Of a stretch of 64,000 bases of DNA, positions 18,474 through 33,962 are shown one piece after another (the stretch's first letter is position 1; the number at the start of each line of letters is the position of its first letter). Source of the DNA: Oscillospiraceae bacterium (GTDB taxonomy: Bacteria > Bacillota > Clostridia > Oscillospirales > CAG-272). Location of the stretch: positions 23,194-87,193 of the forward strand of contig SVTP01000003.1 in assembly GCA_015063725.1 (NCBI GenBank). Direction: 5' to 3'. The position numbers and the translations under genes were made by a program. A model generated the notes under the pieces. The model was not told the origin of the DNA. It made no database searches and saw only the letters and a list, made by a program, of their open reading frames with translations.

Positions 18474-18500
18474 ATAAAAAAGAGCCCTTCGCAGGGCTCT
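18474..18500 (-). terminator. rho-independent terminator closing the Leu-T-box operon
   Basis: The minus-strand RNA reads AGAGCCCU-gcga-AGGGCUCU followed by UUUUUAUCUG, directly after the 18507 stop. Confidence 0.7.
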
Positions 18501-18506
18501 TGTGTT

Positions 18507-19319
18507 TTACATTTTATAAATTCTCACAGCATTCTCGGAAAGAATCATTGTGCGTTCTTCGTCGGTCAATTTGAGCTTCATAAAAGTTTCAAGCTCGACC
18601 TCGGGAGACCACATCGGAAAATCGCTACCGAACATGACGCGCTCCGCACCGTAGCGGTGAATCAGTCTCTCGCCAAGGGCGAGATCGTTCCCTGCAAACG
18701 GAAAGGTTGAGGAACAATCGACGTATAGGTTTGGAATATCGCAAAGCTCGCGCGAGGCATCGTCCCACACCGACCATCCGCCAAAATGCGCGCCAATGAC
18801 TGTCAATTTTGGAAACGCTTTGAGCACAGGCAAAAGGCGGTTGGGATTGGAATAATCGTAACGATGGTCACCTGTGTGCATCAGGACAGCAAGCCCTTCA
18901 CTCTCGCACAGTTCATACACGCGCATCATACGAGGGTCATCAATGGCAAACCCTTGAATATCAGGGTGAATTTTGATGCCGTGAAGTCCCAATGCTTTGA
19001 TCTCTGCAATAACGGCATCCTGATCTTCACAATCGGGATGCGCCGCGCCAAGTCCCGTAAAACGGTCGGGCGCCTTTGCCACCTCGGCGGCAATAAAGTG
19101 ATTGATGCTGGAGACCTGCTTGGGCGTGGTTGCCACAGATTGCACCACAAAACGGTCGATGCCAACGCGGTCGCCAATCTCCAAAAGCTCGGCGGCAACG
19201 CCACGGCAGGCGGCGTGGGTGGAATAAAACGCATCCGTCCCCGCAACCGCTCTGTCTACAATCTTTTCGGGATAGATATGACAATGCGCGTCAATAACCT
19301 GAAATTTGTTCTCTATCAT
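18507..19319 (-). CDS. amidohydrolase-2 (PF04909-like) TIM-barrel metal hydrolase/decarboxylase family protein
   Basis: 270 aa with an N-terminal IDAHCHIYP metal motif, HTGD and GSDFP. Confidence 0.75.
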   Translation of the reverse strand: MIENKFQVIDAHCHIYPEKIVDRAVAGTDAFYSTHAACRGVAAELLEIGDRVGIDRFVVQSVATTPKQVSSINHFIAAEVAKAPDRFTGLGAAHPDCEDQDAVIAEIKALGLHGIKIHPDIQGFAIDDPRMMRVYELCESEGLAVLMHTGDHRYDYSNPNRLLPVLKAFPKLTVIGAHFGGWSVWDDASRELCDIPNLYVDCSSTFPFAGNDLALGERLIHRYGAERVMFGSDFPMWSPEVELETFMKLKLTDEERTMILSENAVRIYKM

Positions 19320-19325
19320 TTTGTA

Positions 19326-21833
19326 TCATCCTTTTTTCAGTCCCAGCTTTTCAACGGCATCCTCGCGCATTTTGTACTTGAGGATCTTGCCTGCGGCATT
19401 CATTGGGAACTTGTCAACAAAATCAACGTATCTGGGCACCTTGTGGCGCGCCATACTTGCGGCTACAAAGTCTTTCATCTCCTGCTCGGTCATGCTCTCG
19501 CCATCTTTGAGGATGATACAAGCCATAATTTCCTCACCGTATTTTTCGTCGGGAACGCCGATGACCTGCACGTCGCTGACCTTGGGACAGGTGTAGATAA
19601 ATTCTTCGATCTCTTTGGGATAAATGTTTTCACCGCCGCGAATGATCATATCCTTGAGGCGCCCCGTAATGCGGTAGTTGCCGTCATCATCACGGCAAGC
19701 AAGGTCTCCTGTGTGGAGCCAACCGTCGGCATCAATGGCAGACGCGGTCGCCTGCGGCATTTTGTAATATCCCTTCATAATGTTGTATCCACGCGCCACA
19801 AACTCACCGTTGACACCGTTGGGACAGTCCTCGCCCGTTTCGGGATCGATGATCTTGCACTCAACGTTTGCAAAAACACTGCCTACGGTTTCGGTGCGGA
19901 CCTCCAACGAGTCATAATAGGAGCTCATCGTGCATCCGGGAGAGGCTTCGGTCTGACCGTAAACCGAGACGATCTCTTTCATATTCATAACCTCGGTTGC
20001 CTTTTTCATCAGGTCGGCAGGACAGTTGGAGCCTGCCATAATACCGATGCGCATATAGGAGAAATCGGTTGCGGCAAAGTCGGGATGCTCCATCATTGCA
20101 ATGAACATGGTGGGCACGCCGTTAAAGGCGGTGATGTGCTCGTTGTGCACGCAAGCCAGCGCGGGCTTGGGTGAAAAGTACGGCAGCGGCATCATGGTAG
20201 CGCCGTGCGTCATCGATGCGGTCATTGAAAGAACCATACCAAAGCAGTGGAACATGGGAACTTGGATCATCATGCGGTCAGCGGTGGAAAGGTCCATATG
20301 GTCGCCAATGTATTTGCCGTTGTTGACGACGTTGTAGTGTGTCAGCATAACGCCCTTGGGAAATCCAGTAGTGCCCGAGGTGTATTGCATGTTGCAAACG
20401 TCATCCTTATTGACAGCGGCTGCCATGCGGTAGACCTCGCTGACGGGTACCTGTGCGGCACGCTCAACGGCTTCATTCCAATCCATACATCCCTTTTGTC
20501 TGAAGCCAACGGTAATAACGTTGCGCAAAAACGGCAGGCGCTTGCTATGCAGAGCAGCGCCCGGCTTGAGCCTTGCCAATTCGGGGCAAAGCTCGGCAAT
20601 GATCTTGCCGTAGTGCGTATCCTTGGATCCCTCGGTCAAAATCAGGGTGTGTGTGTCGGATTGCTTGAGCAGATATTCTGCCTCGTGAATTTTATAAGCG
20701 GTATTGACAGTGACAAGCACGGCACCGAGCTTTACGGTTGCCCAAAAAGCAATGTACCATTGCGGCACGTTGGATGCCCAAACGGCGACATGGGAGCCTG
20801 CCTTGACGCCCAGCGCGATCAGGGAGCGCGCAAATTCGTCTACGTCATCGCGGAATTCGCTATACGTGCGCGTATAGTCGAGCGTGGTGTATTTGAAAGC
20901 GTATTGATCGGGAAATTCCTCGACCATGCGGTCAAGCACCTGCGAGAAGGTTGCATCGATCAAGAGATCCTTCTTCCAAACATACTTACCCGTATGTGCG
21001 CGGTTGTAATACAAGGTCTTTTCATTGCGTGAGGGATCGCTGAACTGGCTCATAAAGCCGACAAACTGCGAGAAGATGATCTCCATATCATCAAGCTCCT
21101 CACACCAGGCGGGATCCCAGACAAGGGAGAGGAAGCCGTCATAGTTGACGGAGCGCAAAGCAAGCATCATATCCTTGATAGGCAATTCTCCCTCACCAAG
21201 CAGACAGTATTCAATGCTATCCCCTGCTCTTTTTGCATCGTTGATATGCACGTGGCGAACGTACGCACCAAGATTTTTGATGATCTGCTCGGGACTCTCT
21301 CCTCCCTCAAAATATGCAGCGGAAAGATTCCAAAGAGATGCAAAGTAATCACTGGCAAAGCTATCCAACATCGCGCGTAGCTTTTCGGTCTTTGCAAAAA
21401 GTCCTGCCGTCTCCATCAAAAGCGAAATGCCGCGGCTCTCTGCCTCGGGCAGGAGTTCTGCAATCACTGCCTCTGTGTTGGTAAGTGCACTCTCCTCGTC
21501 CTCTGCGGCATTGGCGCGAATGCGAATGTTGGGGATATGCAAATTGGATGCGATCTCCATGCACTTGCGAATTTCGGCAATGCAGGCATCCTTTTCGTTC
21601 TTGTCAGACGGATTGCAGATGGCATCGATGCACGGAATGCGCAGCTTCTTTTCGTAGAGACGGCGAATGGTGGATGCGGCGGCGTAATTATAGAAGGCAC
21701 CGTCTTTATCAGCAAACAGGCTGTTTTTTATGTTGTGAAGCTCAATGCCCCCAAAGCCCATTGCCGTGGCGATGTCGCAAAAATCTTCAAAGGTGTGGCC
21801 GTGCCAGCCCTTTGTTGAAAAGGAAAATTTCAT
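19326..21833 (-). CDS. fusion protein: xylose-isomerase-like TIM barrel + AMP-forming acyl-CoA ligase
   Basis: 835 aa. The first roughly 270 aa resemble sugar-phosphate isomerase/epimerase TIM barrels (GFGGIELHN, HVHINDA). The remainder is an adenylate-forming ligase (YTSGTTGFPKGVMLTH, YGQTE, TGDLACRDDDGNYRITGRLKDMIIRGGENIYP). Confidence 0.8.
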   Translation of the reverse strand: MKFSFSTKGWHGHTFEDFCDIATAMGFGGIELHNIKNSLFADKDGAFYNYAAASTIRRLYEKKLRIPCIDAICNPSDKNEKDACIAEIRKCMEIASNLHIPNIRIRANAAEDEESALTNTEAVIAELLPEAESRGISLLMETAGLFAKTEKLRAMLDSFASDYFASLWNLSAAYFEGGESPEQIIKNLGAYVRHVHINDAKRAGDSIEYCLLGEGELPIKDMMLALRSVNYDGFLSLVWDPAWCEELDDMEIIFSQFVGFMSQFSDPSRNEKTLYYNRAHTGKYVWKKDLLIDATFSQVLDRMVEEFPDQYAFKYTTLDYTRTYSEFRDDVDEFARSLIALGVKAGSHVAVWASNVPQWYIAFWATVKLGAVLVTVNTAYKIHEAEYLLKQSDTHTLILTEGSKDTHYGKIIAELCPELARLKPGAALHSKRLPFLRNVITVGFRQKGCMDWNEAVERAAQVPVSEVYRMAAAVNKDDVCNMQYTSGTTGFPKGVMLTHYNVVNNGKYIGDHMDLSTADRMMIQVPMFHCFGMVLSMTASMTHGATMMPLPYFSPKPALACVHNEHITAFNGVPTMFIAMMEHPDFAATDFSYMRIGIMAGSNCPADLMKKATEVMNMKEIVSVYGQTEASPGCTMSSYYDSLEVRTETVGSVFANVECKIIDPETGEDCPNGVNGEFVARGYNIMKGYYKMPQATASAIDADGWLHTGDLACRDDDGNYRITGRLKDMIIRGGENIYPKEIEEFIYTCPKVSDVQVIGVPDEKYGEEIMACIILKDGESMTEQEMKDFVAASMARHKVPRYVDFVDKFPMNAAGKILKYKMREDAVEKLGLKKG

Positions 21834-23215
21834 TGCGCGGCCTCCTCGTAAACGATCTTGTTAACGGCGTTGATATAGGCACGGATGCCTGCACCGATGA
21901 TGTCGGTGGAAATACCGTTGCCCGAATAGAGCTTTCCGTCGGAGCGAAGCTTAACGAGCGCCGAGCCCATAGCTTCTGTACCCTCGGTAACGGCTTGGAT
22001 CTGGAAATCATCCAACTCATAACGGTAGCCGATGATCTGCTCGATGGCAGAAAATGCGGCATCAATTGGACCGTCGCCAATGCAAATGCCCGTCAGATCC
22101 TTTCCGTCCTTGCGCAGCGTGATCTGCGCACTTGTGGAAATGATATTGCCGCTGTTGACAACGTAATTGACAAGCTCATACGTGGGCGGAACCTGCAATG
22201 CCACGCTTGCAACGATGGCTTCCAGCTCCTTTGCCCCTACCTTCTTTTTGGCGGCTACGCGTAAAAATTCTTGATAAACAAGAGATTTATCTTCTTCGGA
22301 AAGATCGTACCCCAGCTTTGCAACGGCTGTAGCTACGGTGTCCTTATCGTCGTTGGCATCCAGATGGATGGGTTCGTCGTCGGGAGTGGCAGAAGTGATG
22401 CTTCCCTTTGCGCTCTTGACGTTATCCAGCACCCAGCCGATCTGCTTTACCGTACGATGAAGCTCGGTATAGCGGATATCGGAATAAAAGCCGTAGCGGT
22501 TGCCGCAATTTTTGACCATGGCGGCAAAGCTCTCAAGCGAAACACCTGCCTCGCCTACGGCTGTTTTAACACCCGATGCGCCTGCGCGGATCGCCATAAT
22601 AGCATTCGCACAAGCCATACTGTTTTGATTGGAACAACGAACGTTGACGGGAACGTTGATATTCTCGGCAATCTTCTTCACGAAATCTGCAAAATCATCG
22701 GGGAGCATTTCTCCTGCATCATCGCAAAGAGTAACCTCACAAGCACCTGCCGCAATAGCGGTGTTGATAACAGAAGCAAGGAATGCAGGCTCTGCACGGG
22801 AAGCATCCAAAGCGCAAAACTCAACCGAGGAGCACTGCTCTTTTGCAAAGGTGACGATCTTCTCTACCCATGCAATCATCTTATCGGGCTTTTTGTGGCA
22901 AACGTACTCCATGCTGACAGGAGAGGTGGGCAGCTCAATGCGAATGCGCGGATAGAGTGCGGTAGAAAGTGCCGCTTTTGCATTTTCGACGCTCTCAACC
23001 GTCATACCTGCCGCCACGGAGATGGTGCTCTTTTTAACAAAGGTCGAAATCGTTTTGATCAGCAGTGTATCAATGCGCACGTTTTGAATTTCGGGCAGCT
23101 CGATAATGTCCCCATCCAGCTTTTCAAGCTGACGGGCGATATCGATCTTTTCTTTAAAGCTAAAGGCATTGTCTGCTCGGCAAAGCGTAGCGTCTGCAAT
23201 TCTGATTCTTTTCAT
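21830..23215 (-). CDS. 2-isopropylmalate synthase homolog with degenerate catalytic motifs
   Basis: 461 aa with a DRE-TIM-like N-terminal half and a LeuA-type C-terminal regulatory domain (GDGPIDAAFSAIEQI, IQAVTEGTEAMG, GISTDIIGAGIRAY). The TLRDGEQ motif is replaced by TLCRADN, and HxH(D) by RCSNQ. Confidence 0.8.
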   Translation of the reverse strand: MKRIRIADATLCRADNAFSFKEKIDIARQLEKLDGDIIELPEIQNVRIDTLLIKTISTFVKKSTISVAAGMTVESVENAKAALSTALYPRIRIELPTSPVSMEYVCHKKPDKMIAWVEKIVTFAKEQCSSVEFCALDASRAEPAFLASVINTAIAAGACEVTLCDDAGEMLPDDFADFVKKIAENINVPVNVRCSNQNSMACANAIMAIRAGASGVKTAVGEAGVSLESFAAMVKNCGNRYGFYSDIRYTELHRTVKQIGWVLDNVKSAKGSITSATPDDEPIHLDANDDKDTVATAVAKLGYDLSEEDKSLVYQEFLRVAAKKKVGAKELEAIVASVALQVPPTYELVNYVVNSGNIISTSAQITLRKDGKDLTGICIGDGPIDAAFSAIEQIIGYRYELDDFQIQAVTEGTEAMGSALVKLRSDGKLYSGNGISTDIIGAGIRAYINAVNKIVYEEAAQ

Positions 23216-23255
23216 GGTTTCAAATCTCCTCTTCCATCATTTCCGCCCCGATAAA

Positions 23256-23530
23256 TCAAAAGTCCCCGAGACGGATGCATAATCCACCTCGGGGACGAAT
23301 GTTCTCATTCGCGGTACCACCCCGGTTACCGAACAAGTCGGTCACCTCAAAGGCTCAGGCAAGCCCTATGCTATGATAACGGTGCATGCCGTGACCGCTT
23401 ACTAAAGGTTCTGCGGTCCTGCTCCGGAACGAGACTTTCTTCTCTTTCGGTAACGGCTCACACCAAGCGCCGCCTCTCTGAAACCGATATGGGAGAAAAA
23501 ATAATTCCTTCAACGCATTTCAAAAAAATA
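23256..23530 (-). promoter_or_regulatory. T-box riboswitch leader, specifier read as CUC (Leu)
   Basis: On the minus strand: a K-turn (GUUGAA/GGA), an AGAGAG bulge, a CGGC-GCUUGGUGUGA-GCCG distal loop, the T-box core CCGGGGUGGUACCGCG (23310-23325) and a terminator GUCCCCGAG...CUCGGGGAC+UUUU (23258-23297). The specifier CUC-G lies at 23430-23433. Confidence 0.8.
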
Positions 23531-23536
23531 TGCTTT

Positions 23537-23565
23537 ATTATACCATTTACAATGGTATTTGTCAA
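23537..23565 (-). promoter_or_regulatory. sigma-A promoter of the Leu T-box unit
   Basis: TTGACA (23560-23565), a 17-nt spacer, then TATAAT (23537-23542). Confidence 0.6.
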
Positions 23566-23587
23566 GGTTTTTTTGAAATTTTTTCAA

Positions 23588-24658
23588 TTATTTTTCAATG
23601 GGATATGTCCAGCCGTAAGTGTCCTCGATTTTGCCCCATTGAATGCCTGTCAAGGTATCGTACAGATGTTGGGTAACGGTACCGATCTTGCCACCGTTAA
23701 CGGGATATTGTACGCCCTTGTAGCAAAGCTCGCCAATGGGAGAGACAACTGCAGCAGTTCCGCAGCCCCATGCTTCCTCAAGTGTGCCATTTTCAAGCGC
23801 TTCGGAAAGCTCACCGATAGAGAGCAGACGCTCGCTGACCTTGTAGCCCTCGCCCTTGAGAACCTCGATGCAGGATTTGCGCGTGATACCGGGCAGAATG
23901 GAGCCGGTCAGAGCGGGCGTGACGATCTCGCCGTTGATCTTGAACATAACGTTCATAGCGCCGACTTCTTCGATATACTTGCGTTCCACACCGTCAAGCC
24001 ACAAAACCTGAGAGTATCCCTTTTGTGCGGCTCTCTCACCGGCTCTGTTACTTGCGGCATAGTTACCGCCGCATTTTGCATAACCTGTACCGCCTCTGAC
24101 AGCACGAACATCCTCGTCCTCGATCATGATGCGAACGGGATTGATGCCCTCTTTGTAGTAGCTTCCTACGGGAGAAGCGATGATAACAAAGGTTGCGTTG
24201 TGAACTGCGTGAACACCCAAGGTCTCATCGTTTCCAAACAGGAACGGACGCAGATAAAGCGAGGTTCCGGGAGCGGACGGTGTCCAGTCCTGCTCCATTT
24301 CCACAAAGGTCAAAAGAGCCTGAAGCATATCTTCCTCGGGCATTTGCGGCAGGCACAAACGCTCGGCAGAGTTGTTCATGCGGCGAATGTTCTCCAAAGG
24401 GCGGAAGAGCTGAACCTTGCCGTCGGCACGGCGGTAAGCTTTCAGTCCTTCAAAGATCTCGGAGCCATAGTGCAGAACGGTGGATGCAGGATGGAGAGAA
24501 ATGTTTGCAAAAGGCACGATGCGCGCATTGTGCCAACCCATCTCGTGGGAATAGTCCGCCATAAACATATGGTCGGTAAAGATCTTGCCAAAGCCAAGCG
24601 TAGAAGGATCCGGCTTTGCCTTGGGAGCATCACATTTTGTAATGGAAATATTGAGCAT
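23588..24658 (-). CDS. ilvE: branched-chain amino acid aminotransferase
   Basis: 356 aa with FGKIFTDHMF, ASTVLHYGSEIFEGLKAYR, the PLP-Lys context, GTGYAKCGGNYA and PGITRKS. Confidence 0.9.
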   Translation of the reverse strand: MLNISITKCDAPKAKPDPSTLGFGKIFTDHMFMADYSHEMGWHNARIVPFANISLHPASTVLHYGSEIFEGLKAYRRADGKVQLFRPLENIRRMNNSAERLCLPQMPEEDMLQALLTFVEMEQDWTPSAPGTSLYLRPFLFGNDETLGVHAVHNATFVIIASPVGSYYKEGINPVRIMIEDEDVRAVRGGTGYAKCGGNYAASNRAGERAAQKGYSQVLWLDGVERKYIEEVGAMNVMFKINGEIVTPALTGSILPGITRKSCIEVLKGEGYKVSERLLSIGELSEALENGTLEEAWGCGTAAVVSPIGELCYKGVQYPVNGGKIGTVTQHLYDTLTGIQWGKIEDTYGWTYPIEK

Positions 24659-24685
24659 AGTACTTCCCCTTTCTGCAATTTGTTA

Positions 24686-25219
24686 TCAGTTTTCGGCACC
24701 GATGCGCATAGCGCCAAGATTGATCTCCAGCATGTCGGCACGCTTTGCGGAGATAACTTTTTTCAGTGCAGCGGTGATGTTTTCTTCGTTATAGTCGCCA
24801 ATTTCCTTGAGAACCTTGCCAACAATGATCATATTTGCCAGCGTGGGAGTTCCGTTATCGCTTGCCAGCTGCGTTGCAGGAATGTAGAATACCTGAACGT
24901 CATCGCGTGCGACCTTGCGCTCAATGAGCGTGGAGTCCGCAAAGATCATACCGCCGGGCACAACGGTCGATTCAAACTTATCAAGAGAAGGCAGATTCAT
25001 GGCGATCAGGATATCGGGATTGGAAACGATAGGAGAACCAACAGGCTCATCGCTCACGATGACACTGCAGCTTGCAGTACCGCCGCGCATTTCGGGACCG
25101 TAGGACGGAAGCCAGCTGACCTGTTTATCTTCCATCAAGCCCTTGTATGCAATAAATTTACCGGCAAACAGAATGCCCTGTCCGCCAAAGCCGGAAAACA
25201 GCATTTGCTTTGTACTCAT
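24686..25219 (-). CDS. 2-oxoacid:ferredoxin oxidoreductase, gamma subunit
   Basis: 177 aa with [14 protein letters not shown], typical of the gamma subunit. It has an ATGA overlap with the beta gene. Confidence 0.85.
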
Positions 25220-25974
25220 TTTGCCGATTCCTCCTTTGCACTTCTATCCTTATAGACACCCAAGGGATAGTACGGAATCATCTTTTCGTCAATCCATTGG
25301 AGAGCCTTCTGAGGTGTCATACCCCAGTTGGTGGGACAGGTGGAAAGGACCTCTACCAGAGAAAAGCCCTTGCCATCAATTTGGTTTTGGAATGCCTTTT
25401 TGATCGCCTTTTTGGCGTTATTTACGTTCTTTACATTGTTGACCGTTACGCGAGCAAGATACTCGGGGCCTTCCAATTCAGAGAGCATTTCGCACACGCG
25501 GATCGGGAAACCGCAGTGATTGGTGTCACGTCCGTAAGGAGAGGTCTGTGTTACCTGTCCGGGCAGCGACGTAGGTGCCATCTGACCGCCGGTCATGCCG
25601 TAAATTGCGTTGTTGATAAAGATAATGGTGATGTTTTCGTTTCTTGCAGCGGCATGAACAGTCTCCGCCATACCGATGGATGCGAGGTCACCGTCACCCT
25701 GATAGGTGAACACGATGTGCTCCTCGGGATTTGCGCGTTTTACACCGGTGGCAACTGCAGGGGCTCTGCCGTGTGCCGCCTCGATCATATCACAGTTAAA
25801 ATAGTTATAAGCCATAACCGAGCAACCAACGGGAGCAATACCGATGGTTCTGCCTTCGATACCAAGCTCGTCAATGACCTCGGCTACCAGACGGTGAATG
25901 ATGCCGTGGGTGCAGCCGGGACAATAGTGAAAAGGTGCATCGGTCAGGGCGTGGGGCTTTTTGAATACAACCAT
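25216..25974 (-). CDS. 2-oxoacid:ferredoxin oxidoreductase, beta (TPP-binding) subunit
   Basis: MVVFKKPHALTDAPFHYCPGCTHG... and GDGDLASIG (the TPP/Mg motif). I chose the ATG at 25974, which overlaps the alpha stop as TAATG. Confidence 0.85.
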   Translation of the reverse strand: MVVFKKPHALTDAPFHYCPGCTHGIIHRLVAEVIDELGIEGRTIGIAPVGCSVMAYNYFNCDMIEAAHGRAPAVATGVKRANPEEHIVFTYQGDGDLASIGMAETVHAAARNENITIIFINNAIYGMTGGQMAPTSLPGQVTQTSPYGRDTNHCGFPIRVCEMLSELEGPEYLARVTVNNVKNVNNAKKAIKKAFQNQIDGKGFSLVEVLSTCPTNWGMTPQKALQWIDEKMIPYYPLGVYKDRSAKEESAK

Positions 25975-27050
25975 TAGTTTTCTCCTCCTTTCGCGGCTTT
26001 TTTGATCGCTTCGAGTACTTGCTCGGGGGACGGAATCATACCGCCTGCACGATTGCAAAGCGTTACAGGCTTTTTGCATTCGGTTGCAAGGCGTACATCC
26101 TCAATCATCTGTCCCATAGAAAGCTCAACAGAAATAAAGCTGTTGACCTTATCCGCAGCGCGACGGAAAACTTCCTTCGGGAAGGGCCAGAGCGTGATGG
26201 GACGGATCATGCCGACCTTAATTCCCTGTTTTCTTGCCTCGTTGATGGCGTTTTTGGATACGCGAGCGGCAATACCGAAGGCGGCAATGCAGATCTCGGC
26301 ATCGTCCATCATGTATTCCTCGTACAGAACCTCGTTTTCCTCGATGTAGCGGTAACGCTCATAGCGAGCAAAGTTGAACTGCTCAAGCTCCTCGGGAACG
26401 AGAGAGAGCGAATTGACAATGTTGTGGGGACGTTGCATTTTGGTGCCTGTGATTGCCCAAGGCTTTTCGGGAGCGGGCTTGACAACAAGATCATCAAGTG
26501 CCACGGGCTCCATCATCTGTCCCATGGTGCCGTCTGCCAAAATCATAGCGGTCATGCGGTAGGTGTCGGCAAGCTCAAAGCCCTTAACGGTCAGCTCTGC
26601 CATCTCTTGAACAGATGCAGGTGCGAGAACGATCATACGGAAGTCACCGTGACCGCCTGCCTTGGTTGCTTGGAAATAGTCGGATTGGCTGGGTTGAATG
26701 CCGCCAAGACCGGGACCGCCGCGTTGAACGTTGACAACGAGTGCAGGCAGATCAGAGCCTGCAAGGTAAGAAAGACCTTCGCTCTTGAGTGCGATTCCGG
26801 GACTGGAGGAAGAGGTCATAACGCGGTATCCCGTAGATGCTACGCCATAAACCATATTGATAGCCGCGATCTCGCTTTCGGCTTGCAGGAAGGTACCGCC
26901 AATCTTGGGCATCTTTTTTGCCATATAAGCCGCGATCTCGGTTTGAGGGGTGATGGGATAGCCAAAATAATGTCTGCAGCCTGCGTGAATTGCAGCCTCG
27001 GCAATGGCTTCGTTGCCTTTCATCAATACTTTATCTGCCATTTTGATCAC
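25974..27050 (-). CDS. 2-oxoacid:ferredoxin oxidoreductase, alpha subunit
   Basis: 358 aa with MKGNEAIAEAAIHAGCRHYFGYPITPQTEI and QAESEIAAINM. Confidence 0.85.
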   Translation of the reverse strand: MIKMADKVLMKGNEAIAEAAIHAGCRHYFGYPITPQTEIAAYMAKKMPKIGGTFLQAESEIAAINMVYGVASTGYRVMTSSSSPGIALKSEGLSYLAGSDLPALVVNVQRGGPGLGGIQPSQSDYFQATKAGGHGDFRMIVLAPASVQEMAELTVKGFELADTYRMTAMILADGTMGQMMEPVALDDLVVKPAPEKPWAITGTKMQRPHNIVNSLSLVPEELEQFNFARYERYRYIEENEVLYEEYMMDDAEICIAAFGIAARVSKNAINEARKQGIKVGMIRPITLWPFPKEVFRRAADKVNSFISVELSMGQMIEDVRLATECKKPVTLCNRAGGMIPSPEQVLEAIKKAAKGGEN

Positions 27051-27253
27051 CTCTCAACAGTAATAATGCAGTCGGGACACATCGTTGCACAGAAAGCACA
27101 GCCGATGCAAGCATCGGGGTTTTCTGCCTCTACGGGGTGATGTCCCTTTTTGTTGATCTTATCGGGTGCCAGACGAAGCACCTTTTTGGGGCAAGCGTCT
27201 ACACACAGACCGCAGCCCTTGCATTTATCGGTCAAAAACGTTAATTTTGCCAT
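27047..27253 (-). CDS. 2-oxoacid:ferredoxin oxidoreductase, delta (2x[4Fe-4S] ferredoxin) subunit
   Basis: 68 aa, MAKLTFLTDKCKGCGLCVDACP...CIGCAFCATMCP. It has an AAGGAG RBS and its stop has an ATGA overlap with the alpha start. Confidence 0.8.
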   Translation of the reverse strand: MAKLTFLTDKCKGCGLCVDACPKKVLRLAPDKINKKGHHPVEAENPDACIGCAFCATMCPDCIITVER

Positions 27254-27287
27254 TTTTATGTACTCCTTTGGGTAGGATTTAAAACAG

Positions 27288-27950
27288 TTACTGAATCTTT
27301 TTTTGCAGTTCAAGTGGGAAAAGATCAGGAATCTTCCCTTCCAGCTCACACTGCAGTTTTTGGTCTGCCGTTGTCATAACGACGGGCAAGCCCGACATAG
27401 CCGCCACCTCGTTGGCATAGGATACCGACCGAAGCACGTCCTCGGCAGTGGTCTCCACTCCGAGATTGGAGTTGTTGACCAATGCGGTAAATCGCATACC
27501 GCACGCGGTCTCGATCTCACGCATTACCTCAAGGGTGGATATCGCATCGCGCGTTAAGGGGCGGTAGCAGTTGATCACCATCAGCATTTCGTAATCATTC
27601 TCCGCCAAAATAGCGGGAGCGAGTCTGCCAAGCACCAAAGCACCGCGGTCGTCACCGCCCACGTCGATGATGGCGCGCATGCGGCGGTCATCGGTCAGGG
27701 CGTAGAGGTCGGGCGGAAGTGCGGGAATATCGACGTTGCTGTTTGCATAGTTGGAGCAAATGAGTCGAATGCCCGCCTCTTCCAGCTCGGCGGCACTGTC
27801 CTTGGAACGAAAATAAGGATTGACGATGTCAAGGTCGGCAAGCGTTACGGTTGGGTATTCCCTCTTGATGGCTTGTGCCAGATTGACGGCAATGTTGGTT
27901 TTGCCGCTGCCGTAATGTCCGCACAAGAGCAAAACGCGTTTGTTCATCAT
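27288..27950 (-). CDS. P-loop NTPase of unknown role (MinD/CooC/GPN-like layout)
   Basis: 220 aa with a deviant Walker A (LLCGHYGSGKTN), LADLDIVNPYF and a Walker-B-like IIDVGGDD. Its start overlaps the ligase stop as ATGA. Confidence 0.6.
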   Translation of the reverse strand: MMNKRVLLLCGHYGSGKTNIAVNLAQAIKREYPTVTLADLDIVNPYFRSKDSAAELEEAGIRLICSNYANSNVDIPALPPDLYALTDDRRMRAIIDVGGDDRGALVLGRLAPAILAENDYEMLMVINCYRPLTRDAISTLEVMREIETACGMRFTALVNNSNLGVETTAEDVLRSVSYANEVAAMSGLPVVMTTADQKLQCELEGKIPDLFPLELQKKIQ

Positions 27951-30235
27951 AGCTTGTTCCTCTGAATTTTTCCGCTTGTTGTCTTGGGCAATTCATCGCA
28001 GAAGACCACAAGACGGGGGTATTTGTAGGGAGCGGTGTGCTCCTTAACGTAGGTTTGAATTTCTTTTTTGAGTTCCTCTGTGGGTTCTGTTCCCTTGGTA
28101 AGAACAATGGATGCCTTGACGATCTGTCCTCTTACCTCATCGGGAGCGGCGGAAACGCCGCACTCAAGAACGTAAGGCAGCTCCATAATAACGCTCTCAA
28201 TTTCAAAGGGACCAATGCGGTAGCCCGAGGACTTGATGACGTCATCGGCACGTCCTACGTACCAATAGAAGCCGTCCTCATCGCGCCAAGCAACGTCGCC
28301 GGTGTGGTAGTAACCGTCGTGCCAGACCTCTGCGGTCTTTTCCGCGTCGCGATAGTAGCCTGTAAAGAGTCCGCAAGGCGCTCCGTTTTTGACGTTGACA
28401 ACGATCTCACCGCTCTCACCAACAGAAACGGGATTGCCGTCGGCGTCCACAAGAGAAACATCATAAATCGGTGCGGGCTTACCCATAGAGCCGATCTTAT
28501 GCGGTGCACCGATCATATTACCGATGATCATGGTGCTCTCGGTCTGTCCAAAGCCTTCGAGAATTTGCAGTCCCGTTGCCTTTTCAAACTGGCGGTAGAC
28601 CTCGGGGTTGAGTGCTTCGCCCGCCGTTGTCATGTGCTTGACGGAAGAAAGATCGTATTTGGAAATGTCTTGCTTGATCATCATGCGCAGCATTGTGGGC
28701 GGCGCGCAGAAGGTTGTGATGTTGTATTTTGCAAACATCGGCAAGATCTCGGCAGCATCAAAGCGGTCAAAGTCGTAAACAAAGGTTGCCGCCTCACACA
28801 GCCACTGACCGTAGAGCTTTCCCCACATTGCCTTTGCCCAGCCCGTATCCGAGATGGTAAAATGTAAGCCGTTGGGATCGGCATTGTGCCAATATTTTGC
28901 GGTATGGAAGTGTCCGAGTGCGTACTTGTAATTGTGCGCCGCGATCTTGGGGTATCCTGTGGTTCCCGAAGTAAAGAACATCAGCATCAGATCGTCACCG
29001 CCGGGTGCATCCTCGCCTCGGTTGTAGTGCGAGCTGTAAAGCGTGTATTCTTCATCAAAGCTTCTCCAGCCCTCTCTTGTGCCGCCAACGATCAAGAAAT
29101 TCTTGAGCTCGGGACAGGTTTTTGCTGCGAGTTCGATTTGATGTGCGGTGTTGCCATCGGCAGTACAAAGAACCGTATTGATGCCTGCGGCTTGGAAGCG
29201 GTATTCAAAGTCATGCTCCTGCAACTGATTGGGAGCGGGGATGGCAATAGCACCAAGCTTGTTCAAGCCAAGCATAGCAAACCAGAACTGATAGTGGCGC
29301 TTGAGAACGAGCATGACGCGATCGCCCTTTTTGATGCCCAGCGACTTGAAATAGTTGGCACACTGTGCCGATGCTTTTTTGATATCCTTAAAGGTAAATC
29401 TTCGCTCGGTCTTATCCCCTGCAATGTGCAGCATTGCCAGCTTTTGCGGTTCTTTATCGGCAAGAGCATCCACAAGATCGAATGCAAAGTTAAAGTTTTC
29501 GATATTTTTAAATTGGATGGATGTAGGAGTTCCGTTTTCGTCTTCTTCAACGTCAATAAACTGTTGATAGATGCGCTCCTTGGTATCCTTTTGAATGGTG
29601 GCAGTTCCCCGCACGAGCTTTGCGGGCGTCAATTCGGGAATGGGCTCACCCGTAGGATTGAGCACGATCGCATAGAATTCGCAATCCTGACCGTCAACGG
29701 CAATCATACCGTGCGGAGCGCTACTGTCATAATAGATGCTGTCGCCTGCGCGCAGAACCTCTTTGTGCGAGCCGACCTGCACCATCAGGCTACCCGAGAT
29801 GACGATGTCGATCTCCTGACCTGCGTGTGTAGTCAGCTCGATATCCTTGTGTAGTGCTTCTTCGTTGTATTCACTGCGAACAAGCAAGGGCTCGGCAATT
29901 CGGTTTTGGAACGCGTATGCCAGGTTGTAGTAGGTCATGCCGTGTGCCTGCTCAATACGCTGTCCCGCGCCGTTTCGAGTGACCGTGTAGGACTTGAGCT
30001 TGGGGCTGACACCGTCGATGATGTCGGTAACGTTGACGCCAAAAGCCAATGCACAACGGTAGATAAACGCAAAGTTGAGGTCACTCTGCCCGTTTTCGCA
30101 CGCCAAGTATTCTTCAATCGTAACGTCGGTTTTTGCCGCCATCTCCTCGGGAGTATAGCGTGTAATTTCGCGCAACTCTCGAATACGCTCTGCCATCTCT
30201 CGGATCTTGAAATCCAATCCGCTCATTTGTTTCAT
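27947..30235 (-). CDS. HTH(XRE)-cupin fused to an AMP-forming short/medium-chain acyl-CoA synthetase (paralog B)
   Basis: 762 aa from the ATG at 30235, with a GGAGAG RBS. The N-terminus has an HTH (ITRYTPEEMAAKTDVTIEEY) and a cupin (HAGQEIDIVISG...HGM). The ligase part carries FFTSGTTGYPK, GFGQTE, TGDVAWRDEDGFYWYVGRADDVIKSSGYRIGPFE and SGKIQR. The ORF-track start at 30328 lies inside the T-box core and is rejected. Confidence 0.85.
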   Translation of the reverse strand: MKQMSGLDFKIREMAERIRELREITRYTPEEMAAKTDVTIEEYLACENGQSDLNFAFIYRCALAFGVNVTDIIDGVSPKLKSYTVTRNGAGQRIEQAHGMTYYNLAYAFQNRIAEPLLVRSEYNEEALHKDIELTTHAGQEIDIVISGSLMVQVGSHKEVLRAGDSIYYDSSAPHGMIAVDGQDCEFYAIVLNPTGEPIPELTPAKLVRGTATIQKDTKERIYQQFIDVEEDENGTPTSIQFKNIENFNFAFDLVDALADKEPQKLAMLHIAGDKTERRFTFKDIKKASAQCANYFKSLGIKKGDRVMLVLKRHYQFWFAMLGLNKLGAIAIPAPNQLQEHDFEYRFQAAGINTVLCTADGNTAHQIELAAKTCPELKNFLIVGGTREGWRSFDEEYTLYSSHYNRGEDAPGGDDLMLMFFTSGTTGYPKIAAHNYKYALGHFHTAKYWHNADPNGLHFTISDTGWAKAMWGKLYGQWLCEAATFVYDFDRFDAAEILPMFAKYNITTFCAPPTMLRMMIKQDISKYDLSSVKHMTTAGEALNPEVYRQFEKATGLQILEGFGQTESTMIIGNMIGAPHKIGSMGKPAPIYDVSLVDADGNPVSVGESGEIVVNVKNGAPCGLFTGYYRDAEKTAEVWHDGYYHTGDVAWRDEDGFYWYVGRADDVIKSSGYRIGPFEIESVIMELPYVLECGVSAAPDEVRGQIVKASIVLTKGTEPTEELKKEIQTYVKEHTAPYKYPRLVVFCDELPKTTSGKIQRNKL

Positions 30236-30263
30236 GTTTTCTCTCCGTTTCTTGCCCGGGAAC

Positions 30264-30540
30264 CAAAAATGCACTCGTCCCAAGCGAAAATAACCTTGAG
30301 ACGAGTGCAATAACACCCGCGGTACCACTCAAATTGCGACAAAGTCGCCACTCTTGGAGCCTGACAGCTCCTATGCATTAACGCAGCAATCACGGAAGGG
30401 TTCTACTGGAGCGTGCTCGTTCTTCCCTTCGGCTCGGAAGCTACAAATGCCGGTAAAGTCCAATGGCTTGCACCAAACGCCATCTCTCTGCAAAGACCTG
30501 TTTCCAACATCCTCTTCGTCAGTGCCTTTCTAAATTATAA
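30264..30540 (-). promoter_or_regulatory. T-box riboswitch leader, specifier read as GUA (Val)
   Basis: Stem I has a K-turn (CUGAC/CGA), a GAAG/CUUC lower helix, an AGAGAG bulge and an AUGGC-GUUUGGUGCAA-GCCAU distal loop. The T-box core is AAUUUGAGUGGUACCGCGGG (30316-30335) and the terminator is GCACUCGUC...GACGAGUGC+AUUUUUG (30264-30308). The specifier GUA-G lies at 30441-30444. Confidence 0.8.
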
Positions 30541-30543
30541 AGT

Positions 30544-30572
30544 ATTGTATCACACTTTTGGTTATTTGTCAA
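30544..30572 (-). promoter_or_regulatory. sigma-A promoter of the Val T-box operon
   Basis: TTGACA (30567-30572), a 17-nt spacer, then TACAAT (30544-30549). Confidence 0.6.
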
Positions 30573-30611
30573 TAGATTTTATAATATTTCCAATATTATA
30601 TATTGGCAATA

Positions 30612-32879
30612 TCAAAGTTTATTTCTCTGAATCTTGCCGCTGATGGTTTTGGGCAGTTCATCGCGGAAAACAACCACGCGGGGGTATTTGTAGGGCGCGG
30701 TATGCTCTTTGACATAAGTTTGAATCTCTTTTTTGAGCTCTTCGGTGGGTTCTGTTCCCTTTGTAAGAACAATAGACGCCTTGACAATCTGTCCTCTGAC
30801 CTCGTCGGGCATAGCGGATACACCGCACTCGAGAACGTAAGGCAGCTCCATAATAACGCTTTCGATCTCAAAGGGACCGATGCGGTAGCCGGAGGACTTG
30901 ATAACGTCATCTACGCGACCAACGTACCAATAGAAACCGTCCTCATCGCGCCAAGCGGTGTCACCCGTATGATACATACCGTCATGCCAAACCTCGGCGG
31001 TCTTTTCTTCGTTCTTGTAGTATCCCGCAAAGAGTCCGCAAGGAACCTTTTTGTCGGTACGGACAACGATCTCACCAACCTCACCAACCGCTACGGGATT
31101 GCCGTCGGGATCAACGATATCAACGTCATAAAGCGGAATAGGCTTACCCATGGAGCCGAGCTTGTGCGTGCCGCCAATCAGATTTGCAATGGTGAGCGTC
31201 AGCTCGGTCTGCCCAAAGCCTTCCATGATCTGTAGTCCCGTTGCCTTTTCAAACTGACGGTAAACCTCGGGGTTGAGTGCTTCGCCCGCGGTGGTCATAT
31301 GCTTGATGGAAGAAAGATCGTATTTGGAGATGTCTTCCTTGATCATCATGCGCAGCATCGTGGGGGGCGCACAGAAGGTGGTGATATTGTATTTTGCAAA
31401 CATGGGAAGGATATCCGCTGCCGAGAAGCGGTCAAAGTCATAGGTAAAGACCGCGCCCTCACACAGCCACTGACCGTAGAGCTTGCCCCAAAGTGCCTTG
31501 CCCCATCCTGTTTCGGAAATGGTAAAGTGGAGACTGCCGTCACTGACGCCGTGCCAATGCTTGGCGGTAACAAAGTGACCGAGCGGATATTTGTAGGTAT
31601 GCGCTGCAATTTTGGGATACCCTGTGGTTCCCGATGTAAAGAACATCAACATCAGATCGTCACCACAGGGGGTGTCATCAGTACGATAGAAGTGCGTGCT
31701 GTAAAGACCGAATTCCTCGTCAAAGTCTCTCCAGCCGTCGCGCTTGCCGCCAACGAGAACCTTGGTGGTGAGCACCGGGCACTTCTGTTGTGCAAGGTCA
31801 ACCTGATGGGCAACATCACCGTCGGCTGTGCAGATGATCGCACTAACGTCGGCTGCTTCAAAGCGGTATTCAAAGTCATGCGCCTGCAGCTGATTGGTCG
31901 CGGGAATAACGATAGCACCCAGCTTGTGCAAGCCGAGAATTGCGAACCAGAACTGATAGTGGCGCTTGAGAACGAGCATGACACGGTCGCCCTTTTTGAT
32001 GCCCATGGATTTGAAATAGTTTGCGCACTGTGCCGAGGCGCGTTTCATATCGTTAAAGGTAAAGCGACGCTCGGTCTTATCGTTTGCAATGTGGATCATG
32101 GCAAGCTTGTCGGGTTCCTTTTGTGCAATGGCATCCACAACATCAAAGCCAAAGTTGAATTTGTCCTCATCGTGGAAATCGATGGACTGCAACAGACCGT
32201 TTTCGTCCTCGACTGTGGAGATAAAACGGTCGCAGACCAACTCTCTCTTTGGGGTACGCATGGGGATCAGTGTATCTCTGATCACGTCCTCTTTTTCGTT
32301 CTCACCGGGCAAAACAACTGCCACAAATAGGCAATCCTCGCCATCGATTGCGATCATACCGTGAGGGGTGGAGCTGTTGTAATAAATACTGTCACCCTCA
32401 CCGAGATACTCGACGTTATCGCCAACCTGCACCTTGAGCTTGCCTTTGAGTACCATGTCAAACTCCTGCCCGGAGTGCTTTGTCAGGTGGATGGGACGGT
32501 TTTGCAGATCGGGGTTATATTCGTAGCGAACCCAATAGGGCTCAGCCAGCTTTTTGCGGAACATGGGGGCTAAGTTGGAAATCTCAATGCCATCCTCTTT
32601 TGCCGTTTGCTGTCCCTGACCACGGCGCGTGACCGTGTAGGACGAAAGATGCGCACTGCGGCCTTCCAAAAGGTCGGTCATGCCAATGCCAAACGCCTGC
32701 GCACATTTATAAATAAAGGTAAACGGAAAATCCAACTCACCGCTTTCATACCTGCAGTACTCGGCAACCGATACCTCGGTCTTCTCTGCCATGGTTTCAA
32801 CGCTGAAATCAAAAATTTCACGCATTTCGCGAATTCGAAGCGCAACCTCCTGCAAAGTGTTAGATGATAAGTTCGACAT
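30612..32879 (-). CDS. HTH(XRE)-cupin fused to an AMP-forming short/medium-chain acyl-CoA synthetase (paralog A)
   Basis: 755 aa from the ATG at 32879, with an AGGAGG RBS. It has the same architecture as 27947-30235, and the ligase half is nearly identical (FFTSGTTGYPKIAAH, ILPMFAKYNITTFCAPPTMLRMMIK, GYRIGPFEIESVIMELPYVLECGVSA). The ORF-track start at 32963 lies inside the T-box and is rejected. Confidence 0.85.
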   Translation of the reverse strand: MSNLSSNTLQEVALRIREMREIFDFSVETMAEKTEVSVAEYCRYESGELDFPFTFIYKCAQAFGIGMTDLLEGRSAHLSSYTVTRRGQGQQTAKEDGIEISNLAPMFRKKLAEPYWVRYEYNPDLQNRPIHLTKHSGQEFDMVLKGKLKVQVGDNVEYLGEGDSIYYNSSTPHGMIAIDGEDCLFVAVVLPGENEKEDVIRDTLIPMRTPKRELVCDRFISTVEDENGLLQSIDFHDEDKFNFGFDVVDAIAQKEPDKLAMIHIANDKTERRFTFNDMKRASAQCANYFKSMGIKKGDRVMLVLKRHYQFWFAILGLHKLGAIVIPATNQLQAHDFEYRFEAADVSAIICTADGDVAHQVDLAQQKCPVLTTKVLVGGKRDGWRDFDEEFGLYSTHFYRTDDTPCGDDLMLMFFTSGTTGYPKIAAHTYKYPLGHFVTAKHWHGVSDGSLHFTISETGWGKALWGKLYGQWLCEGAVFTYDFDRFSAADILPMFAKYNITTFCAPPTMLRMMIKEDISKYDLSSIKHMTTAGEALNPEVYRQFEKATGLQIMEGFGQTELTLTIANLIGGTHKLGSMGKPIPLYDVDIVDPDGNPVAVGEVGEIVVRTDKKVPCGLFAGYYKNEEKTAEVWHDGMYHTGDTAWRDEDGFYWYVGRVDDVIKSSGYRIGPFEIESVIMELPYVLECGVSAMPDEVRGQIVKASIVLTKGTEPTEELKKEIQTYVKEHTAPYKYPRVVVFRDELPKTISGKIQRNKL

Positions 32880-32895
32880 TTTGGTTTCCTCCTTT

Positions 32896-33170
32896 TCAAA
32901 AAATAAAACACCCGTCTCAATTCTTTGAGACGGGTGTGAAAATACACTCGCGGTACCACTCAAATTGCGACATTGTCGCCACTCTTGGAATCAAACAATT
33001 CCTATGCCTTGACGCAGCAATCACGGGAAATTCTACTTGAACACAGTCTTTCGAACATCCGGCTCGGAAGTGATGGGTCTTGAGTAACTTTGTCATCGGT
33101 TCACACCAACACCGACTCTCTGCGGGCATCCTTATTCGACCTTCTTCGTCATCGCCTTTTTCAAATTACG
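32896..33170 (-). promoter_or_regulatory. T-box riboswitch leader, specifier read as AUC (Ile)
   Basis: Stem I reads GGC-GAUGAC-GAAG...CUUC-CGA-GCC, with an AGAGAG bulge and a GUCGGU-GUUGGUGUGA-ACCGAU distal loop. The T-box core is AAUUUGAGUGGUACCGCG (32948-32965) and the terminator is ACACCCGUCUC...GAGACGGGUGU+UUUAUUUUUU (32896-32937). The specifier AUC-A lies at 33071-33074. Confidence 0.8.
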
Positions 33171-33173
33171 TGT

Positions 33174-33202
33174 AGTATACCACACAAAAAAGTGTTTGTC
33201 AA
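33174..33202 (-). promoter_or_regulatory. sigma-A promoter of the Ile T-box unit
   Basis: TTGACA (33197-33202), a 17-nt spacer, then TATACT (33174-33179). Confidence 0.6.
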
Positions 33203-33230
33203 TAGTTTTTTTAAAACTTTTTTCAAAAAA

Positions 33231-33962
33231 TCAATCGCAGTTTTCCCAGTTGTGGTAAACGTCCATAACGTCGTCATCCTCTTCGAGCTTTTCAATCAGA
33301 AGATTCATAAATTTGATGTCATCTTCGCTCTCAAGAGTAACGGACGTGGAAGCCTGCTTGGTCTTGTCGGCAGAGAGAATCTCATAGCCTGCGGCTCTGA
33401 GATCTTCCTGAATGTTGTAAACGTCATCGGGCTCGGTGGTGATGATGAAAACGTCACCCTCTGCCTTGAAATCTGCTGCGCCTGCCTCAAGTGCTTGCTC
33501 CATCAGTTTATCCTCGTCAACGTCGCCGTCCTCGTTGTTGATAACGATCTCGCCAACGTCGGTGAAGAGGTATCCAACGCAACCTGTCTGACCCATGTTG
33601 CCGTGGTATTTGGAGAAGTAGGAACGCACGTTACCCGCGGTACGGTTGCGGTTGTCGGTGGTAGCGGTTACCAGGACGGCAACGCCTGCGGGACCGTAGC
33701 CCTCGTAGGAAACCTCTTCGTAGCTTTCACCGCCGCCGCCAAGTGCTTTTTTGATGCAACGCTCGATGTTATCGTTGGGAACGTTGTTTGCCTTTGCCTT
33801 TTGGATCAGGTCGCGCAGCTTGGAGTTGTTGTTGGGATCTCCGCCGCCCTCTTTTACGGCGATGGTGATCTCTTTGCCGATCTTGGTAAAGATCTTACCC
33901 TTTGCGGCATCGGTTTTTTCTTTTTTGTGCTTGATATTCGCCCATTTGCTATGTCCGGACAT
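33231..33962 (-). CDS. yebC: YebC/PmpR-family transcriptional regulator
   Basis: MSGHSKWANIKHKKEKTDAAKGKIFTK...NNVPNDNIERCIKKA. Confidence 0.9.
   Translation of the reverse strand: MSGHSKWANIKHKKEKTDAAKGKIFTKIGKEITIAVKEGGGDPNNNSKLRDLIQKAKANNVPNDNIERCIKKALGGGGESYEEVSYEGYGPAGVAVLVTATTDNRNRTAGNVRSYFSKYHGNMGQTGCVGYLFTDVGEIVINNEDGDVDEDKLMEQALEAGAADFKAEGDVFIITTEPDDVYNIQEDLRAAGYEILSADKTKQASTSVTLESEDDIKFMNLLIEKLEEDDDVMDVYHNWENCD

Follow-up and report, generated by a model that had tools for sequence, protein, structure and literature searches.

Three T-box leaders with isoleucine, valine and leucine specifiers in a gene cluster of an Oscillospiraceae bacterium, and the predicted role of the cluster in branched-acid salvage

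In our study, a stretch of 64,000 nucleotides from an Oscillospiraceae bacterium (GCA_015063725.1, contig SVTP01000003.1, positions 23,194 to 87,193, forward strand; hereafter the window) was found to contain a gene cluster with three T-box leaders, which carry specifier codons for isoleucine, valine and leucine. The cluster consists of three units (Ile, Val and Leu); every gene lies on the minus strand of the window, and most of the adjacent genes are joined by overlaps of stop and start codons (Table 1). The T-box observation is real and lies far beyond chance, and the cluster is conserved with its T-boxes across many species. We consider it likely that the three units form a tRNA-gated salvage regulon, in which exogenous 2-methylbutyrate, isobutyrate and, probably, isovalerate would be converted to isoleucine, valine and leucine. 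A starvation-induced regulon that turns branched acids into branched-chain amino acids (BCAAs) had been put forward in an earlier note on this DNA. All parts of the proposal that computation could check held up. It is supported by the specifiers, by the presence of the genes for the oxidoreductase VOR and the aminotransferase IlvE in the Val operon, by the likeness of two ligases to Macs and MbcS and by the conservation of the cluster; the induction, the substrates and the direction of VOR are inferred.

In the proposed mechanism, each unit would be transcribed from its own strong sigma-70 promoter through a leader that terminates transcription. Uncharged tRNAIle (GAU), tRNAVal (UAC) or tRNALeu (GAG) would stabilise the antiterminator, the discriminator base A73 of the cognate tRNA pairing with the UGGU bulge of the leader, and RNA polymerase would enter the genes. 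An AMP-forming ligase would convert the branched acid to its coenzyme A (CoA) thioester; two paralogous Macs/MbcS-type ligases would serve the alpha-branched acids and a FadD-type ligase the beta-branched acid. The four-subunit VOR of the Val operon would then use reduced ferredoxin to convert the acyl-CoA to the 2-oxo acid by reductive carboxylation, and transamination of this product by IlvE would yield the amino acid.

The T-box leaders and their specifier codons

The whole window was scanned with the Rfam models both at the curated thresholds and by E-value; for the T-box model RF00230 the gathering score is 93 bits. The only match to any Rfam model above its gathering threshold was the Leu leader (23522..23288, minus strand), which scored 122.5 bits against RF00230. 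In the E-value scan, the Ile leader (33161..32923, minus strand; 89.2 bits, E 2e-19) and the Val leader (30531..30294, minus strand; 85.8 bits, E 2e-18) matched the model over its full length. The three T-boxes were the sole Rfam RNA matches in a permissive E-value scan of the whole window, and the three complete minus-strand leaders claimed in the earlier note were therefore recovered as exactly three RF00230 matches. No tRNA genes were found in the 64-kb window.

The covariance-model alignments of the three leaders contained the stem I elements UGA/GAA K-turn, AGAGA and GGUG, in agreement with the K-turn, AG bulge and distal loop that had been described for them. The T-box cores GGUGGUACCGCG and GAGUGGUACCGCG were found in the leaders, and the UGGN bulge was located in the T-box sequence of each leader (GAGUGGUACCGCG or GGGUGGUACCGCG). 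The 3' strand of the antiterminator was common to the terminator stem in all three leaders, and a U tract followed each stem. The claim of a T-box core and a terminator with a U tract in every leader was thus borne out by both the sequence and the terminator calls. The three near-consensus promoters that had been named were also confirmed, being the top three sigma-70 matches between positions 18000 and 33400; all of them have a TG extended -10 element.

Comparative evidence was obtained from the relatives of LigI, the ligase encoded by the Ile unit. A scan that took one genome for each species gave at least 592 relatives, and the comparative work was carried out on the best 80. These were 69-94% identical to LigI, and all came from metagenome-assembled genomes (MAGs) of animal gut or rumen, labelled Oscillospiraceae, Acutalibacteraceae, Christensenellaceae, Ruminococcus, Faecousia and similar. 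A T-box core was present 40-420 nucleotides upstream of the LigI gene in 70 of the 80 loci, and most of the others were truncated contigs or operon fusions.

In the covariance-model alignment, the specifier columns contained CUC-G in the Leu leader, GUA-G in the Val leader and AUC-A in the Ile leader. The alignment had been run as a check on the earlier assignment of the specifiers to Leu, Val and Ile, and it gave the same triplets at the same coordinates. The ATC triplet was invariant in all 66 aligned leaders upstream of LigI (that of the window and those of 65 orthologous loci). The Val leaders contained GTA (49 of 57) or GTC (8 of 57); seven of the GTC specifiers came from the alignment and the eighth, in a poorly aligned leader (locus L028), was taken from the regex call. 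The Leu leaders contained CTC in 17 and CTG in 6 of 23 cases, five of the 23 leaders having been detected by the Rfam model only. The regex-based specifier caller passed over some leaders and over cores of the GGGUGGUACCGUGG type, and the counts were completed by the alignments and by the Rfam model. Change at the triplet was therefore synonymous only, which is the signature of a triplet read as a codon and further supports the Leu, Val and Ile assignment. Of the 51 pairs that RNAalifold predicted in the Ile leader alignment, 28 showed compensatory changes. The possibility that the leaders are degenerate or non-functional was rejected, considering their conservation with covariation and their intact terminators.

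The base that follows a T-box specifier is normally a conserved purine, and a purine was present at this position in all three leaders of the window. Among the 66 Ile leaders, this base varied between A, C and G. It is A in the window (33071) and C in many orthologous Ile leaders, for example in loci L007, L010, L011 and L013 (alignment columns ~119-123).

Some further features were observed around the promoters. Many Ile-unit promoters have A/T-rich palindromic tracts (T6-N-A6) directly 5' of the -35 box (33203-33235 in the window, minus strand). A palindrome, CCAATAT-ATA-ATATTGG, is present 5' of the Val promoter of the window (30581-30609, minus strand), where the closest relatives share a TTGGAAA motif only. 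The tracts and the Val-promoter palindrome may act as UP elements, or as operators to which the helix-turn-helix (HTH) domains fused to the ligases would bind. A palindrome search upstream of the promoters across the loci recovered no conserved operator, and A/T tracts alone recurred. The interval 30572-30612 (minus strand), between the stop codon of the LigI gene and the Val promoter and leader, is free of terminators; transcripts that read through the Ile T-box would therefore enter the Val T-box, which could couple both units.

The Ile and Val units

The claim that each leader gates a ligase held for the Ile and Val units, where the ligase gene follows the leader directly. In the Leu unit a LeuA-like gene comes first and is followed by a TIM-barrel-ligase fusion, and here the claim had to be amended. 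The cutoffs of RF00230, Pfam and NCBIfam were used throughout for class membership, and PDB sequence searches for the closest structures.

LigI is the sole product of the Ile unit and LigV the first product of the Val unit. They were 69% identical, shared the same architecture and both contained the AMP-binding and AMP-binding_C domains of Pfam; their genes were adjacent in 50 loci. The top PDB match of the LigI ligase domain was 3ETC, the Macs enzyme of Methanosarcina acetivorans (620 bits, E 5e-185, 517 residues aligned), and the equivalent of Macs Trp259 was kept in the ligase domains of both LigI and LigV. Macs acts preferentially on 2-methylbutyrate, and Trp259 is critical in this enzyme (PMC10455477). 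MbcS was the best NCBIfam model for both ligases (LigI 439.6 bits, LigV 435.5 bits). In Staphylococcus aureus, MbcS activates 2-methylbutyrate and isobutyrate selectively and isovalerate poorly (PMC10026030); a separate class of ligase is therefore expected behind the Leu switch, as seen in the cluster. We propose that LigI is a 2-methylbutyrate-CoA ligase and LigV an isobutyrate-CoA ligase. The ACSM/MACS-like class given to them in the earlier note was correct as to the ligase domain, with 3ETC and MbcS as the best matches, but they are not plain ligases, and their N-terminal HTH-cupin module had been overlooked.

Cupin_2 was above the Pfam cutoff in both proteins, and HTH_19 scored 35.4 bits in LigV (cutoff 30.2) and 25.8 bits in LigI. 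The N-terminal 235 residues of LigI matched many standalone proteins of ~185 residues at 33-44% identity, together with other ligase fusions, and the module is, judging from these matches, derived from standalone regulators. These regulators have the XRE-HTH-cupin architecture of PDB 1Y9Q; in LigI and LigV the same module is fused to an enzyme. A PDB search with the module returned no close characterised relative. The database names of LigI are only 'cupin domain-containing protein' or 'AMP-binding protein', and an identical LigI protein is on record from a Ruminococcaceae MAG.

We found 19 positions that cleanly split the 81 Ile-type from the 53 Val-type ligases (the copies of the window included), and 17 of them were located in the HTH-cupin module. 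The only separating positions in the ligase domain were G460A and G475A. Residue 460, the sole fully split residue of the ligase domain, is Gly in the LigI group and in the Macs equivalent and Ala in LigV of every ortholog. Given this pattern, the cupin may sense something pathway-specific, and residue 460 may tune the size of the pocket. The nucleotide identity between the LigI and LigV genes was a mosaic, ranging from 0.51 to 0.60 over the first 750 nucleotides (the HTH-cupin part) and from 0.61 to 0.91 in the ligase part, with peaks of 0.87-0.91. The mosaic suggests that the tandem paralogs are under strong constraint or have undergone partial gene conversion; the nucleotide identity profile revealed no clear conversion tract.

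The Val unit contains the genes for LigV, a P-loop protein, the VOR subunits delta, alpha, beta and gamma, and IlvE, in this order. Of the VOR subunits, alpha passed its NCBIfam equivalog cutoff, and beta, gamma and delta fell below theirs. The Val operon alone is thus predicted to encode a complete route from isobutyrate through isobutyryl-CoA and 2-oxoisovalerate to valine. The first reading of this DNA had proposed the pathway without having seen the genes for the VOR subunits, the P-loop protein and IlvE, and the pathway part was strengthened by VOR alpha and IlvE, both of which passed their cutoffs.

The P-loop protein was highly conserved among orthologs and contained no conserved Cys, and in 51 related loci its gene directly preceded that of VorD. 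Its database name is 'hypothetical', and the JGI label 'EcfA2' is implausible. Its PDB sequence search returned matches at the level of the Walker A motif only. The AlphaFold2 model of the protein had a mean predicted local distance difference test (pLDDT) score of 57, and Foldseek gave no meaningful matches for that model. Considering its position and its conservation, the protein looks functional and may be a VOR-associated NTPase.

The best-scoring curated family, MbcS, takes up branched acids in S. aureus for membrane lipids (PMC10026030), and the Ile unit of the window consists of a ligase alone. The ligases could accordingly scavenge branched acids for branched-chain membrane fatty acids, with T-boxes that respond to a shortage of BCAA-derived primers. 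We regard such a role as improbable. The LigV gene is predicted to be co-transcribed with the VOR and IlvE genes, which are unneeded for primers, and in several loci (for example L052 and L037) the Ile T-box drives LigI together with the P-loop protein, VOR and IlvE. Domain annotation revealed no fatty-acid synthesis genes in the cluster.

T-boxes switch genes on when an amino acid is scarce and its tRNA is uncharged, and an anabolic rather than a catabolic role of the cluster therefore fits. VOR and IlvE are reversible, and in many fermenters they work in the catabolic direction. A cluster in which IlvE and VOR oxidise BCAAs to acyl-CoAs, with the ligases acting in reverse or detoxifying acids, was therefore considered as well. 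It is very improbable and was rejected. Induction on scarcity is the opposite of the catabolic need, AMP-forming ligases are not known to serve in the conservation of ATP, and none of the energy-conserving acid-forming enzymes (phosphotransacylase and kinase, or ADP-forming synthetase) was found in the cluster with Pfam and NCBIfam.

The Leu unit, gene order in relatives and neighbouring genes

The first gene of the Leu unit encodes pseudo-LeuA, which shares with LeuA the two-domain layout (HMGL-like barrel and LeuA_dimer) and the position behind a Leu T-box; true leuA genes are often found there. In comparison with 3RMJ and 3EWB, two catalytic features of LeuA were replaced in pseudo-LeuA, the RDGEQ motif with its Arg/Asp (by TLCRADN) and the His-x-His ligands of the metal (by RCSNQN), and the positions of the catalytic motifs were unconserved in 30 orthologs. 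The protein also missed every LeuA equivalog cutoff, the best score being 274.7 bits against 532. Pseudo-LeuA is therefore not a functional LeuA. The C-terminal LeuA_dimer domain alone was well conserved (0.76, against 0.54 in the barrel), and the protein may be a leucine-sensing or regulatory subunit. It is named 'hypothetical' by NCBI and '2-isopropylmalate synthase' by JGI.

The second gene encodes TIMLig. The FadD/ACSF2-like ligase fused to a TIM barrel, as claimed in the earlier note, was confirmed by Pfam; the fusion is encoded by the second gene rather than the first, and the LeuA homologue and the Amidohydro_2 gene at the end of the unit had been overlooked. TIMLig matched PRK12583 with 670 bits, below the cutoff of 832, and a PDB search with its TIM domain gave no close characterised relative. 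TIMLig would act as an isovalerate-CoA ligase. In the Amidohydro_2 protein the full metal site (HxH, H148, H178 and D233) was conserved among orthologs. The closest PDB entry is uncharacterised, distant matches were to decarboxylases, and the protein looks functional.

Our reading of the cluster is least certain for the Leu unit. The Ile and Val units may act as proposed while the Leu unit converts another precursor of leucine or forms a leucine-regulated complex with a different chemistry, an alternative that we hold to be unlikely but to deserve weight. The TIM barrel, the amidohydrolase and the LeuA-like protein are all unneeded for the activation of isovalerate alone. The trio is conserved together; the LeuA-like gene adjoined that of TIMLig in 29 loci, and an Amidohydro_2 gene was present in 15. 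The family of the Amidohydro_2 protein, with its full metal site, includes reversible decarboxylases, and the ligase domain of TIMLig is without a characterised close relative. Against this alternative, in most loci the Leu unit was linked on the DNA to the genes for VOR and the other ligases, at times as part of a single operon (L011 and L034), and its T-box was always a Leu T-box. A different ligase is expected in the Leu unit, given that Macs/MbcS-type enzymes are poor on isovalerate, and VOR and IlvE would complete the route from isovaleryl-CoA.

The cluster was present in at least 70 of the 80 loci; the gene order was shuffled across the lineages and the parts stayed linked. The Leu unit was located upstream, downstream or divergently, and the IlvE gene before or after the VOR genes. 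Fused, longer operons with fewer T-boxes were found in six loci (L011, L024, L027, L034, L051 and L062), with orders such as LeuA-like-TIMLig-LigI-LigV-IlvE-P-loop-VOR and LigI-P-loop-VOR-LeuA-like-TIMLig. In these operons one specifier may gate the whole pathway.

The salvage regulon may have a second layer of control, which we put forward tentatively and with less than even confidence. The T-boxes would read tRNA charging, and the HTH-cupin modules and pseudo-LeuA would read metabolites (either the amino acid formed at the end or the acid that enters the pathway) as feedback or autoregulatory sensors that resemble trigger enzymes. The suggestion is made because 17 of the 19 residues that split the Ile-type and Val-type ligases lie in the HTH-cupin module and because pseudo-LeuA keeps the allosteric domain only.

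Several points weigh against the salvage regulon as proposed. The Ile and Val leaders scored slightly under the gathering score of Rfam, and the carriers among the best 80 relatives are all uncultured MAGs. LigI and LigV are both under the MbcS equivalog cutoff of 850 bits and are thus relatives of MbcS rather than equivalogs, so that their substrates are read from ~60% identity to Macs and from the specifiers. In the window, VOR and IlvE sit behind the Val T-box only, and starvation for isoleucine alone or leucine alone would therefore rely on basal expression, read-through or other copies. In the Leu unit, PDB searches revealed no close characterised relative of the TIMLig ligase domain; the dead LeuA, the TIM barrel and the Amidohydro_2 protein are superfluous to a simple pathway, and the activation of isovalerate would explain the unit only partly.

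Table 1. Features of the three-unit cluster, with positions in the window
Feature	Position	Strand	Description
Ile-unit promoter	33174..33202	-	TTGACA-17-TATACT; 11/12 matches; TG extended -10
Ile T-box leader	32908..33161	-	Specifier AUC 33074..33072; core GAGUGGUACCGCG at 32960; terminator 32937..32908 and U tract
LigI, 755 aa	30612..32879	-	XRE-type HTH, Cupin_2 and Macs/MbcS-type AMP-forming acyl-CoA synthetase; sole gene of the Ile unit
Val-unit promoter	30544..30572	-	TTGACA-17-TACAAT; 11/12 matches; TG extended -10
Val T-box leader	30271..30531	-	Specifier GUA 30444..30442; core GAGUGGUACCGCG at 30329; terminator 30308..30271, then AUUUUU
LigV, 762 aa	27947..30235	-	HTH_19, Cupin_2 and Macs/MbcS-type ligase; first gene of the Val unit
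P-loop NTPase-like protein, 220 aa	27288..27950	-	Walker A GHYGSGKT; DVGGDD motif; start overlaps LigV stop; weak CbiA match
VOR delta, 68 aa	27047..27253	-	2x[4Fe-4S] ferredoxin-like; Fer4 families; OGOR_delta and PorD_KorD matches below cutoffs
VOR alpha (VorB type), 358 aa	25974..27050	-	NF005507, 547.5 bits (cutoff 399); POR_N, PFOR_II
VOR beta (thiamine pyrophosphate-binding), 252 aa	25216..25974	-	TPP_enzyme_C; PorB_KorB-type matches below cutoffs
VOR gamma, 177 aa	24686..25219	-	POR, 117 bits
IlvE branched-chain aminotransferase, 356 aa	23588..24658	-	NF009897, 473.2 bits (cutoff 307); TIGR01123, 399.3 bits (cutoff 250)
Leu-unit promoter	23537..23565	-	TTGACA-17-TATAAT; 12/12 matches; TG extended -10
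Leu T-box leader	23262..23522	-	Specifier CUC 23433..23431; core GGGUGGUACCGCG at 23321; terminator 23296..23262 and U tract
Pseudo-LeuA, 461 aa	21830..23215	-	Degenerate HMGL-like barrel and LeuA_dimer regulatory domain; first gene of the Leu unit
TIMLig, 835 aa	19326..21833	-	Xylose-isomerase-like TIM barrel (AP_endonuc_2) and FadD/ACSF2-type AMP-forming ligase; start overlaps pseudo-LeuA stop
Amidohydro_2 metal-dependent hydrolase/decarboxylase-type protein, 270 aa	18507..19319	-	PF04909, 132 bits; last gene of the Leu unit
Intrinsic terminator at the end of the Leu unit	18480..18501	-	9-bp stem with 5 GC pairs, then U tract

Other genes of the window were also recorded. Just downstream of the cluster (16167-17511, minus strand) lie the genes for an extracytoplasmic function (ECF)-type sigma factor of 195 residues and a DUF4367 protein of 258 residues, probably its anti-sigma factor or a partner. 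Between this pair and the cluster, positions 17708-18340 encode a protein of 210 residues with no Pfam match. Two long open reading frames on the plus strand (80-2599, 839 residues; 61719-63389, 556 residues) had no Pfam match at E <= 1e-5. A gene at 4043-5326 (minus strand) encodes a [FeFe]-hydrogenase-like protein (Fe_hyd_lg_C, Fer4 and a putative Fe-S domain), which may be a sign of ferredoxin-linked metabolism in the host and is loosely relevant here.

Relation to known systems and significance

The leaders of the cluster have the same architecture and the same readout of tRNA charging as the RF00230 T-boxes of the Firmicutes, which are located upstream of ilv-leu operons, BCAA transporters and ileS, valS or leuS. 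The targets differ from the usual ones, being acyl-CoA ligases, a ferredoxin-dependent 2-oxoacid oxidoreductase and accessory proteins, and a single cluster holds leaders of three specificities. No such targets are mentioned in the T-box surveys PMC2494555 and PMC3766115. Macs aligns with LigI and LigV over the full length of their ligase domains, and the substrates that we propose for the two are in agreement with the measurements on Macs and MbcS. Macs and MbcS are without the N-terminal XRE-HTH and cupin module of ~235 residues; LigI and LigV further differ in their T-box control and in their proposed purpose, which would be the synthesis of amino acids rather than the priming of lipids. 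The VOR of the cluster has the same four-subunit organisation as that of rumen bacteria and methanogens and the same proposed physiology, the conversion of branched-chain volatile fatty acids (BCVFAs) to BCAAs, which was reviewed for methanogens (PMC10658910). In contrast to the known VOR, it is encoded in an operon under tRNA control, next to genes for a dedicated ligase, IlvE and a conserved P-loop protein, and it is predicted to work in the reductive direction.

T-boxes, Macs/MbcS ligases, VOR and the BCVFA-to-BCAA physiology are already known singly. Their combination in one cluster, the three codon-labelled switches, the regulator-enzyme fusions and pseudo-LeuA appear undescribed. A literature search on T-boxes together with branched acids, VOR or acyl-CoA synthetase found no description of the wiring, although a mention in subscription-only papers is possible; within this scope, the view that the module and its T-box control are uncharacterised was upheld.

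Many fibre-degrading anaerobes of the rumen and gut need isobutyrate, 2-methylbutyrate and isovalerate or benefit from them, and isotope work since the 1960s has established their conversion to valine, isoleucine and leucine. To our knowledge, the genes of the activation step in Firmicutes and their regulation are absent from standard annotation and metabolic reconstruction; the branched-acid route was not considered in the gut-microbiome amino-acid reconstruction that we examined. The locus offers a complete candidate set of genes for the salvage of branched acids into BCAAs and, for each ligase, a substrate assignment that is read from the codon of its T-box. It is also a case of T-boxes taken up by a salvage pathway, away from the genes that they usually control. 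The prediction of auxotrophies in uncultured Oscillospirales and Christensenellales, the design of media for their culture and the supplementation of feed with isoacids would benefit. Some annotations give the dead LeuA as 2-isopropylmalate synthase, and false calls of leucine prototrophy are therefore possible. If the two-layer reading is true, each specifier codon would double as an internal label of the substrate, for hundreds of ligases without annotation in uncultured Clostridia of the gut and rumen.

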